Positions 818-55,232 of a stretch of 64,000 nucleotides of DNA are shown piece after piece. Below the pieces are notes generated by a model. That model worked only from the letters and a program-made list of their open reading frames with translations. It had not been told where the DNA came from and made no database searches. How positions within the stretch are numbered: the stretch's first letter is position 1; every line of letters starts with the position of its first letter. The position numbers and the translations under genes were made by a program. The DNA comes from Octopus vulgaris (lineage: Eukaryota), in NCBI GenBank assembly GCA_951406725.2, contig OX597839.1, positions 34,782,001 through 34,846,000 on the forward strand, in the 5' to 3' direction.

Positions 818-862
818 TTCTACAGGACTAGAACTGTTTCATTCAAAAGAAATCATCAGGAA
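818..862 (-). ncRNA. Minimal type I hammerhead motif (stem I truncated by inversion)
   Basis: TTC-CTGATGA-tTTC tttt GAAt-GAAAC AG ttctagtc CT GTA-GAA. GUA cleavage triplet. Confidence 0.6.
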
Positions 863-1089
863 CAGTTCTAGTCCTGTAGAAGCTCCTTCTATATAATAAA
901 TTAACTTACTCTGCTAGGTATTGAGTACCTTATTTACTGTGGTTAACCCCGACTGAACCCGGGACCTACATATATATATATATATATATATATATATATA
1001 TATATGTAGGTCCCGGGTTCAGTCGGGGTTAACCACAGTAAATAAGGTACTCAATACATTGCAGAGTAAATATATATATATAAATATAT

Positions 1090-1745
1090 AAAATTAATTA
1101 AGGGTAGAAATTGATATTTATCAATTAAGACCAGTGGTCTAGCATATTAAAAAAGAATCCGAAGATTAAAATATTTATATATACCAATTAAGGACTGAAC
1201 ACGAAAAGTGGACAGTCAACATGCTAGATATAGACGTCAAATCGCCATTCACCACAAAAGATTATGTTCTCAGATCAAACTCAACACAAAACCATAGCAA
1301 TAAACAAGTGAAAAATATACGAAATAAAATAATTACCCATGTACTAATTAGTTTCAGCTGTTATTTTCCGCAAGGAAAACTGCAGCCATCATCAGGGTTT
1401 CAACGCGCCAAAGTAAAGGCATTTGAAAGATATATTCAAATGTAATAGGCTGAACTCCATGCACGCGATATTTCGGTATCGTGTTTGCATCTAGTCCAGC
1501 AAATTACATTTATAACGGACCATGCTGATGATGGCTGCAGTTTTCCTTGCGGAAAATAACAGCTGAAACTAATTAGTACATGGGTAATTATTTTATTTCG
1601 TATATTTTTCACTTGTTTATTGCTATGGTTTTGTGTTGAGTTTGATCTGAGAACATAATCTTTTGTGGTGAATGGCGATTTGACGTCTATATCTAGCATG
1701 TTGACTGTCCACTTTTCGTGTTCAGTCCTTAATTGGTATATATAA
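1090..1745. mobile_element. Penelope-like (pLTR) fragment inserted head-to-head in (TA)n; same family at 23845-24140 and 62180-62480
   Basis: Near-perfect inverted arms at about 1177-1395 and 1525-1742, a hammerhead, and flanking (TA)n. The ORF track shows the same peptide on both strands. Confidence 0.75.
1520..1583 (+). ncRNA. Type I hammerhead ribozyme, Penelope-like minimal type
   Basis: CCATG-CTGATGA-t-GGCTG...CAGCT-GAAAC TAATTA GTA-CATGG. Stem I is 5 bp, stem III is the palindrome ACTAATTAGT, and the site is GUA. Confidence 0.85.
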
Positions 1746-1850
1746 ATATATATATAATACACTTTTCTCTTAAGCCACATTTAATGTGGTTATAGTGTCA
1801 AGTTTTGGCTGCTATTTTCAGCGTGGTGGTATCTCTTAGATACCCTAAAT

Positions 1851-2035
1851 CAGTGCTTTTCAACCTTTTTGCTGGAGCGGAACCCCAAGGAAACATTCCA
1901 CTGGCTCGAGGAACCCCTGTGCAATAATTTAATAGTCTTATGCACACATATCTGCACAGGAGAATTAAAAATTGCTGCCGATTTTAGCATTTTTGTAACC
2001 CTAAGGTTCCGCGGAACCCTGGTTGAAAACTACTG
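1851..2035. mobile_element. hAT-type MITE
   Basis: TIRs CAGTGCTTTTCAACC / GGTTGAAAACTACTG and a perfect 8-bp TSD CCCTAAAT at 1843-1850 and 2036-2043. Confidence 0.92.
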
Positions 2036-53236: not shown

Positions 53237-53429
53237 CGCTCCAGGATGCCTCCCCAATTAACTACGGCAACTCTAGGTTATTTGTCGTTAATTGGATATC
53301 GGGGTTTAATTAATCCCTTTTCCCCTTTCGTCAACGTCCACTTTTTCTGTCTCTGTTACTCTTCCTCTGTAGTTCTGTAGTTCGCCATGCTTGATGTGTG
53401 TGTGTGTGTGTGTTTTAAGTATGCCTTAG

Positions 53430-54130
53430 TGCGTGTGTGTGTATCTCTGTGTGTGTCTGTATCTGTGTGCGGGAGGTTAAGTGTGTATGTATATGTGTAT
53501 CTGAGTGTGTGTTTGAGTATGCCTCAGTGTGTGTGTGCGTGATTTAAGTGTGTATGTATATATATATATGTATCTGTGTGTGTGTTTATCTGTATCTGTG
53601 TGCGTGAGTTTAAGTATGCCTCAGTGCGTGTGTGTGTGTGTCTGTATCTGTGTGCGGGAGGTTAAGTGTGTACGTATATGTATATCTGTGTGTGTGTTTA
53701 AGTATGTCTCAGTGTGTGTGTGTATGTCTCTGTGTGCGGGAGGTTAAGTGTGTATGTATATATATATATATATATATATATACGTATCTGTGTGTGCGTG
53801 AGTTTAAGTGTGTACGTATATGTGTATCTGTGTGTGTGTGCGTGAGTTTAAGTGTGTACGTATATGTGTATCTGTGTGTGTGTGCGTGAGTTTAAGTGTG
53901 TACGTATATGTGTATCTGTGTGTGTGTGCGTGAGTTTAAGTGTGTACGTATATGTGTATCTGTGTGTGTGTCTCTGTGTGCGTGAGTTTAAGTGTGTACG
54001 TATATACGTATCTGTGTGTGTGTTTGTCTGTATCTGTGTGCGTGAGTTTAAGTGTGTATGTATATATATATGTGTATCTGTGTGTGTGTTTGAGTATGGG
54101 CAGTGTGTGTATGCGTTTGAGTGTGTCTGT
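53430..54130. repeat. TG-rich ~40-bp minisatellite just upstream of exon 1
   Basis: Recurring unit gtgcgtgagtttaagtgtgtacgtatatgtgtatctgtgt. Confidence 0.9.
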
Positions 54131-55196
54131 GCGAGTCTATATCTATGTGCGTGCGTTTAAGTGTGCATGTATGTGTGTGTCTATATATATATAAATATAG
54201 GTGTGTCCGTGCGTGTGTATGTTATGCGTAAGTGTGTCTATGTGCGTGTTTAAGTGTATGTTTATGTGCGCCTGTGTGTTCAAGTATGCGTCTGCGTGCG
54301 TGTGTTTAAATGTGTGTCTGTGTGTGTGTGTGTTATGTGTAAGTGTTTATGTTTGTGTCTCTATGCGTGTATTTCAGTGAAGTATGTGTGTGTGCGTGTG
54401 TATAAAGTGCATATGTGTATGTGTACGTTTTAGTGTGTGTGTGTGTGCCTGATTATCATGACTATTTCAGTGTATGTATATATGTGTGTGTGTGTTTATA
54501 TATTTATATATTTCACGTCGCACCTGTATATCTGCGCTTCAGTATTTAATACAAACACACACATACATACACGCACATACGTATGTATGTTTGTGTATAT
54601 ATATTACTTGTTTCTGTCATTCGACTGCGGCCATGCTGGAGCACTGGCTTTAGTCGAACCAGTCGACCCTTGGACTTATTCTTTGCAAGCTTAGTAATTA
54701 TTCTATCGCTCAATTTTTGCAGAACGGCTAAGTTACGCGACGTAAACACACCAACATCGGTGTCAAGCGATGGTGAGGGACAAACACAGACACACAAATA
54801 CATATACATACATACATATACATATATATATATATATATATATATATATATATATATATATATATATATATATACATATATATATATACATATATATATA
54901 CACGTATATATATACATATATATATACATATATATATATATATATATATATATATATATATATATATATATATATATATATATATATATATATATATATA
55001 TATATATATATATATATATATATATATATATATATATATATATACGATGGGCTTTTTCAGTTTCCGTTTAGCACAAATCCACTCACAAGGCTTTGGTCGG
55101 CCCGGGGCTATAGTAGAAGACACTTGCCCGGGTTGCCACGCAGTGGGACTGAACCCGGAACCATGTGGTTGGGAAGCTGCAACATTATCCCATGAC

Positions 55197-55232
55197 CGTT
55201 ACTCGGAGTTTCGCGTTCTCGTTCATCGGACA
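55197..55232 (-). ncRNA. Decayed hammerhead related to the 9356 family
   Basis: TGT-CCGATGA-acg agaa cgc-GAAAC TCCGA GTA-ACG. Confidence 0.55.

Follow-up and report, generated by a model that had tools for sequence, protein, structure and literature searches.

Minimal hammerhead ribozymes have been described in the pseudo-long terminal repeats (pLTRs) of metazoan Penelope-like elements (PLEs; Cervera and De la Pena 2014, PMC4209133), and the motifs analyzed here lie in a 64-kb stretch of the 2.8-Gb genome of Octopus vulgaris (C26:34782001-34846000), referred to as the window. The octopus motifs share with those of PMC4209133 the type I layout, the palindromic stem III and an extra base between positions 9 and 10.1 (between A9 and stem II), described there for PLE hammerheads. 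In both cases many families occur per genome, mostly as solo copies, with opposite-strand pairs 100 to 700 bp apart and a U3-A8 variant (here at loci L204 and L220). Class, abundance, solo copies and opposite-strand pairs are already known from that study. The two data sets differ in that the alignment rows covered of its Fig. S3 include no cephalopod and no G3-C8 core, and in number, as 2,000 to 9,000 motifs per genome were reported using another descriptor and tens of thousands are estimated in octopus. A literature search turned up no octopus hammerhead survey. The motifs of the window fall into seven repeat families of high copy number (A, B, C, D, E, G, and H); the original prediction, made from the letters of the window, had proposed at least six unrelated families, a number that was reached, although the tails of C and H look alike by eye.

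Family A resembles the Neptune and Nematis clades of PLEs with a C-terminal endonuclease (EN+) (Craig et al. 2021, PMC8557442) in its reverse transcriptase (RT), CX2-5CxxC linker and GIY-YIG domain with CCHH, as well as in its (TA)n targets, optional tail and inverted 5' copy. The tail is 30 to 40 nt in Neptune/Nematis and about 60 nt in family A, which also has a 3' untranslated region (UTR) of about 1 kb with microsatellites. In PAc, a Poseidon element of Anolis (Frangieh et al. 2024, PMC11167929), RT initiates at two internal sites early in the open reading frame (ORF), defining the tail; the hammerhead lies at the pLTR-ORF junction, uncut RNA is inserted, and cleavage is protein-assisted, with none seen when protein is absent. 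Family A is alike in its two early-ORF points that define the tail, in the position of its hammerhead and, as proposed below, in the insertion of uncut RNA. It differs in that C3G/G8C is an engineered rescue in PAc and the natural state in family A, and in that the PAc ORF starts inside the ribozyme, whereas that of family A starts about 50 nt after it. Non-LTR retrozymes (PMC7229834; bioRxiv 10.64898/2026.07.22.740005) consist, like family B, of noncoding units arranged head to tail, each having a single type I hammerhead; they are quoted at 150 to 450 bp, against 506 to 507 bp in family B, which has a PLE tail, an inverted arm and a (TA)n target. The SM-alpha hammerhead repeats of Schistosoma, which resemble short interspersed nuclear elements (SINEs; review PMC6765202), share with family D a promoter-like head followed by a hammerhead, canonical in SM-alpha and of the minimal PLE type in family D, which also has a PLE-type tail.

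The motifs are minimal type I hammerhead motifs of the Penelope type, with cleavage predicted. With a probability of roughly 75%, they come from the terminal repeats of PLEs and of short noncoding repeats that probably ride on these, most copies being likely inert by-products of retrotransposition that would arise by run-off at the RNA cap. The linkage of flanks to a PLE ORF with RT and GIY-YIG, proposed in the original prediction, was obtained for family A. Sequence upstream of its short unit leads into a GIY-YIG domain and ORFs of up to 1025 aa. The 1025-aa open frame has a C-terminal GIY-YIG above the Pfam cut-off and no Pfam RT match; the RT motifs YVDD and GxxxG, a CX3CX2C linker and CCHH were read by eye, and motif comparison with the definitions in PMC8557442 places linker and CCHH in the Neptune/Nematis pattern. 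Family A has a partial tandem pLTR, an optional tail and an inverted 5' copy, and at two loci where the 5' junction is visible the tail passes directly into the ORF. Numbered from a boundary A at +1, the motif runs from +16 to +65 within the predicted 5' UTR, with predicted cleavage after +58, the ATG at +115 and 3' ends at +146 and +207.

The core of family A reads G3-U-G-A-A-C8-A. Besides its absence from the Fig. S3 rows, a natural G3-C8 core was not found in the literature covered (Lunse et al. 2017, outside that coverage, may list such variants or cephalopod hits), and G3-C8 occurs as an engineered variant in PMC3884650 and PMC11167929. Family A would be a new core variant of an otherwise known kind. 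At least 150 genomic copies include the GIY-YIG domain and about 10 include sequence near the N terminus. No RNA data set was listed as containing family A. Contigs of four presumed-RNA runs cover the family A short unit and little else; they cannot show start, strand or expression.

The 5' ends of the short copies speak for run-off. Of 48 arms from family A, 36 extend to the boundary; beyond it, 14 continue as genomic sequence, and the other 22 end there. Of the stopping arms that include the AG, 14 of 15 are preceded by a G where the genome has T. As the query started 3 nt inside the boundary, stops at this point were not favored. A copy of an older family A subfamily from a random 600-kb sample (sixty 10-kb stretches at round-number positions) has the same end with the extra G, and all six family A matches in that sample fall inside the short unit. 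Arm ends of family C also peak at one A (21 of 55 arms, in a query-biased count). An untemplated 5' G in L1 has been interpreted as a copied cap (PMC9341517). A fixed start with an extra G, likely a capped RNA start, would explain the load of short copies.

In the proposed mechanism, +1 of family A would be the capped transcription start. The element's protein would nick (TA)n and prime reverse transcription at the 5' copy of the +146 and +207 end points; the cDNA would pass the uncut ribozyme, run off the capped 5' end and copy the cap as the extra G, and would then often fold back to give the inverted twin. The outcome would be copies of 150 to 210 bp that contain the motif almost by construction. 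The ribozyme itself, judging from the literature, would cleave weakly, as a dimer or aided by protein, in tandem element RNA and not in host introns. More tentatively, and at slightly less than even odds, the tens of thousands of minimal hammerheads in octopus would be due to priming at the 5' start-site copy and run-off at the cap, so that the genome maps the transcription start site. An autonomous family with a natural G3-C8 core would be expanding in this way, and its machinery would also move a retrozyme, a 150-bp mini-element and a SINE with a tRNA head.

Several observations weigh against this account. A classic 3' splice-site-like motif, with branch point, pyrimidines and AG, is found at the boundary, and the Penelope 5'-UTR intron ends at its hammerhead (PMC4209133, PMC2377424), so that a very short spliced or foreign first exon may lie at the family A boundary. 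About half of the extra-G cases are explicable by microhomology with the neighboring arm or the target, and arms that stem from the same fold-back cannot count as independent. Families C and E (U4C) and E subfamilies (G17 and U6) have fixed core changes that should impair catalysis, and many copies may consequently never cut. The start and cleavage site of family A are predicted from genomic copies, and six of the seven families lack an ORF link: tblastn with two octopus PLE ORFs gave no linked RT or EN ORF for B, C, D, E, G or H in the 1.5- to 3.5-kb flanks of their top-scoring copies. Two PLE matches beside E and G loci (L177, L253) look like neighboring insertions.

In an alternative reading, the motifs are Penelope-type hammerheads as well, but reverse transcription tends to stall a little upstream of the ribozyme, at an RNA structure or a splice junction, and the short copies are ordinary insertions truncated at this hot spot on their 5' side. 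PLE copies are commonly 5' truncated with inverted partners (PMC8557442), the boundary matches a splice-acceptor-like motif, and some arms end inside the motif. Such a hot spot would, however, lie 13 to 16 nt upstream of stem I and not within it, and truncation points farther upstream scatter over kilobases (with open frames from 95 to 1025 aa). The nongenomic G on 14 of 15 ends also counts against stalling; a splice origin of this G was rejected, as no GAG|GT or GAG|GC donor giving that junction was found in the 1.8 kb upstream of the family A boundary. We consider stalling unlikely.

The insertion anatomy of family A, with an optional 3' tail, an inverted partner and (TA)n, is shared by the other families. 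Candidate copy numbers, which are first-look lower bounds, are at least 2651 (A), 1440 (B), 1817 (C), 1603 (D), 1736 (E), and 775 (G), and family H gave 185 exact 20-mer matches. Units of families C, E, and H measure 150 to 300 bp and come with a tail and an inverted twin. Tails of C and H start alike, and those of B and C have a short CCACTGG word (by eye), hinting at one mobilizing partner. Family B is, by its structure, a tandem retrozyme-like repeat: a noncoding 506/507-bp head-to-tail unit with one motif, an inverted arm, a tail and (TA)n ends, with up to four motifs at 506- to 507-bp spacing in one 3.2-kb locus. The window's motif lies inside one partial unit (1395-1749), and fragments of the family lacking the hammerhead occur at 23844-24147 and 62169-62484, also as inverted pairs. 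The head of family D suggests a SINE-like element with a tRNA-like head. Box-like motifs stand at the common 5' end of all six copies shown, one of them without a B box, as judged by the A/B box consensus; in the window copy the A-box-like stretch is at 12284-12306. ARAGORN and Rfam recognized no tRNA in this head, and literature searches on PLE-mobilized tRNA-SINEs gave nothing specific.

Further variation was seen among these and related families. In most family G copies seen, loop II has signals resembling those of an intron: GTAAGT or GTAACT, a CTAAT branch-like site, then pyrimidines and TACAG. If spliced, the loop would shrink and leave a 3-pair stem II, an echo of the intron beside the Penelope hammerhead. 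Core position 6 is U (once C) in place of A in an abundant subfamily of family E, which makes up 23 of 39 E-type copies, counted with position 7 free and the stems kept (e.g., L114, L128, L195, L207, L211, L213). A U3-A8 hammerhead family was found at L204:9774-9815 and L220:7616-7658 and 8147-8187; U3-A8 and U4C are known natural variants (PMC3088659). The random sample also contains several more C3-G8 families with a long loop II. A second, very young PLE family (L164-L168; e.g., C19:14375315, C17:6331987) has many uninterrupted frames of 1310 to 1312 aa and a 4589-bp tandem unit, and its 5' UTR carries a hammerhead-like motif with C at position 9. It showed no match to the window's motifs.

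Features of the window are listed in Table 1, including three partner arms that the original prediction did not have (9283-9320, from 12390, and 1076-1395). Stem I of family H has at least six pairs in other copies. The degenerate family C relative has three stem I pairs and a mismatch closing stem II. The two family A arms in intron 18 form a 145-nt perfect inverted repeat. Long near-perfect inverted repeats lie at 1171-1749, 9244-9432, 11741-12033, 23927-24147, and 61323-61941, several of them derived from PLE fold-back insertions; those within the gene would give the pre-mRNA long double-stranded stretches, on which A-to-I editing might act.

Table 1. Hammerhead motifs, element arms and host gene in the window
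Feature	Position	Strand	Details
Family H arm	798-863	-	inverted partner 861-975 (+) carries tail
Family H motif, 5' shortened	818-862	-	stem I 3 bp; U.U closes stem II
Family B inverted arm	1076-1395	-	ends at core C3; 225 nt fully complementary to 1525-1749
Family B motif, intact	1520-1583	+	CUGAUGA, extra U, 10-nt palindromic stem III
Family A motif, older subfamily, G3-C8	2300-2350	+	short copy 2286-2492 with tail
Family C partner motif, U4C core	9283-9320	-	arm 9174-9333 with tail
Family C motif, U4C core	9356-9393	+	arm 9351-9427, inverted partner of 9174-9333
Host gene, PPP-family Ser/Thr phosphatase (predicted)	11448-53236	-	19 coding exons; protein mapping
Family A motif, G3-C8	11823-11872	-	sense in intron 18; arm 11681-11887 with tail, extra G first
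Family A motif, G3-C8	11902-11951	+	arm 11889-12033
Family D motif, intact	12128-12173	-	sense in intron 18; element 12054-12308, tRNA-like head
Family D inverted partner	12311-12480	+	motif from 12390, cleavage-site bases missing
Family E motif, U4C core	26641-26675	+	element 26561-26765; antisense to gene
Family G motif, intact	33884-34009	-	loop II about 90 nt; sense in intron 5
Family E subfamily motif, G17	44406-44440	-	element 44346-44512; sense in intron 1
Degenerate family C relative	55197-55232	-	upstream of first coding exon, gene strand

The host gene was placed by a 787-aa O. vulgaris protein (NCBI name; P0004) that is matched at 100% by a minus-strand exon of the window. Its coding exons run from 53236 down to 11448 with GT-AG at introns 1, 5, and 18, and its transcription and splicing are predicted from the protein match and these splice signals. 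The N-terminal exons (53069-53236, minus strand) are Nudix-like in appearance, and one homologue has Pfam PF00293. As most homologues have EF-hands, the protein is a phosphatase of the EF-hand PPP type and not the PP1 that its database name suggests. A weak U6 snRNA match at 7189-7307 (plus strand; 29.6 bits, E 0.002, below the gathering score) is probably a pseudogene fragment.

Four motifs (44406, 33884, 11823, and 12128) lie sense in introns 1, 5, and 18 of this gene, which bears out the original prediction as to orientation only; the effect on the pre-mRNA that it implied is weakened by predicted duplexes and by G17. If such copies cleaved the phosphatase pre-mRNA cotranscriptionally, the load could act as a regulatory layer for host genes, and the intron 5 copy (33884), alone intact and free among them, is just 26% paired outside itself. 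In folds predicted with 250-nt flanks, however, 7 of 13 window motifs, both intron 18 copies included, are 87 to 100% paired to their own inverted partner in putative antisense duplexes, and the intron 1 copy has G17, which impairs minimal hammerheads (PMC3884650). No same-family sense partner for dimerization was found near the sense intronic copies, 33884 having no family partner in the window, and PLE motifs are poor cleavers in vitro (PMC4209133), the Anolis motif showing no cleavage in the absence of protein (PMC11167929). A ribozyme effect on the phosphatase pre-mRNA is unlikely on these modeled folds, and a regulatory layer highly improbable.

Recognition of the motifs used a descriptor with the core of the original prediction, an optional extra base between A9 and stem II, at least four stem I pairs and at least three stem II pairs; it was loosened after the data had been seen. 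Background was taken from 50 block-wise dinucleotide shuffles of the window. Eight window motifs matched (1520+, 2300+, 9356+, 11823-, 11902+, 12128-, 26641+, and 33884-), against a shuffle mean of 0.28 (maximum 2). The strict CTGANGA core gave three against 0.02, the others carrying G3-C8 or U4C, and omitting the extra base retrieved just two of the passing loci. All ten stretches named as type I loci in the original prediction hold a hammerhead-like motif, though 3 of the 11 motifs fail the descriptor (818-, 44406-, and 55197-). To avoid the circularity of the descriptor, pairs were also left free. Over 1.38 Mb of retrieved sequence, 21 stem classes were seen, some of them variants of a single family, and 17 were Watson-Crick at positions 3 and 8 (13 C-G, 1 G-C with 72 copies, and 3 U-A), compared with 1 of 10 classes in three shuffles. 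With the fourth stem I pair (1.4/2.4) free, 37 of 39 family E copies pair there (C-G, A-U, or G-C), which is covariation among three subfamily states and not 37 events; no stem covariation was seen among copies of the young family A. Stem III, proposed to be palindromic as in Penelope hammerheads, is fully self-complementary in five of six families and at 8 of 9 positions in family C. The minimum homodimer structure is the double-hammerhead fold for family B only, the other five dimers folding otherwise. Each of the 11 motifs has a (TA)4+ run no more than 154 nt away, whereas 33% of random sites have one within 200 nt. At the Rfam gathering threshold there were no hammerhead matches in the window or in five loci, and an E-value scan of the window gave no hammerhead among the matches listed (150 of 244), these being hairpin look-alikes. 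That the motifs are chance products of a loosened descriptor in AT-rich, repeat-rich DNA is very unlikely: although the loosening was post hoc, three loci fail and the free 3-8 descriptors have a true background (28 matches against about 9 shuffled), this reading is contradicted by the shuffle excess, by pairing at the unrequired 3-8 and 1.4/2.4 positions, and by a motif within the terminal repeat of a full PLE.

The 600-kb random sample yielded 19 matches to the core of the original prediction against 3.2 shuffled, and 12 against 0.4 with the strict core. Intact motifs occur at one per 38 kb (95% range, 23 to 73), extrapolating to about 74,000 genome-wide (38,000 to 124,000) if matches are independent, which inverted pairs are not. 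The predicted load is thus large and missed by Rfam, while a density above one per 10 kb holds for the window and not for the genome; eight motifs in 64 kb is about four times the average rate (P about 0.001). Published counts with another descriptor are 4,000 in coelacanth and 9,000 in Xenopus (PMC4209133), and up to 120,000 retrozymes are given for axolotl (PMC7229834). Counts of ribozymes are not to be read as ribozyme activity.

What has been a rescue mutant of the laboratory occurs naturally, as a G3-C8 pair, in an autonomous family of high copy number, where it can be put to the test; this would imply that selection preserved the active-site pair. On the more tentative reading of run-off and co-mobilization, the octopus genome would amount to a mutational scan of the hammerhead core made by nature (G3-C8, U3-A8, U4C, U6, C9, and G17). 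The tandems of family B, retrozyme-like units with PLE insertion marks, would give direct structural support to the view of animal retrozymes as nonautonomous PLEs. The G-marked fixed 5' end would offer a concrete reason why most animal minimal hammerheads are solo copies, and would take the internal-initiation model beyond the in vitro work on a single lizard element to a footprint in a genome.

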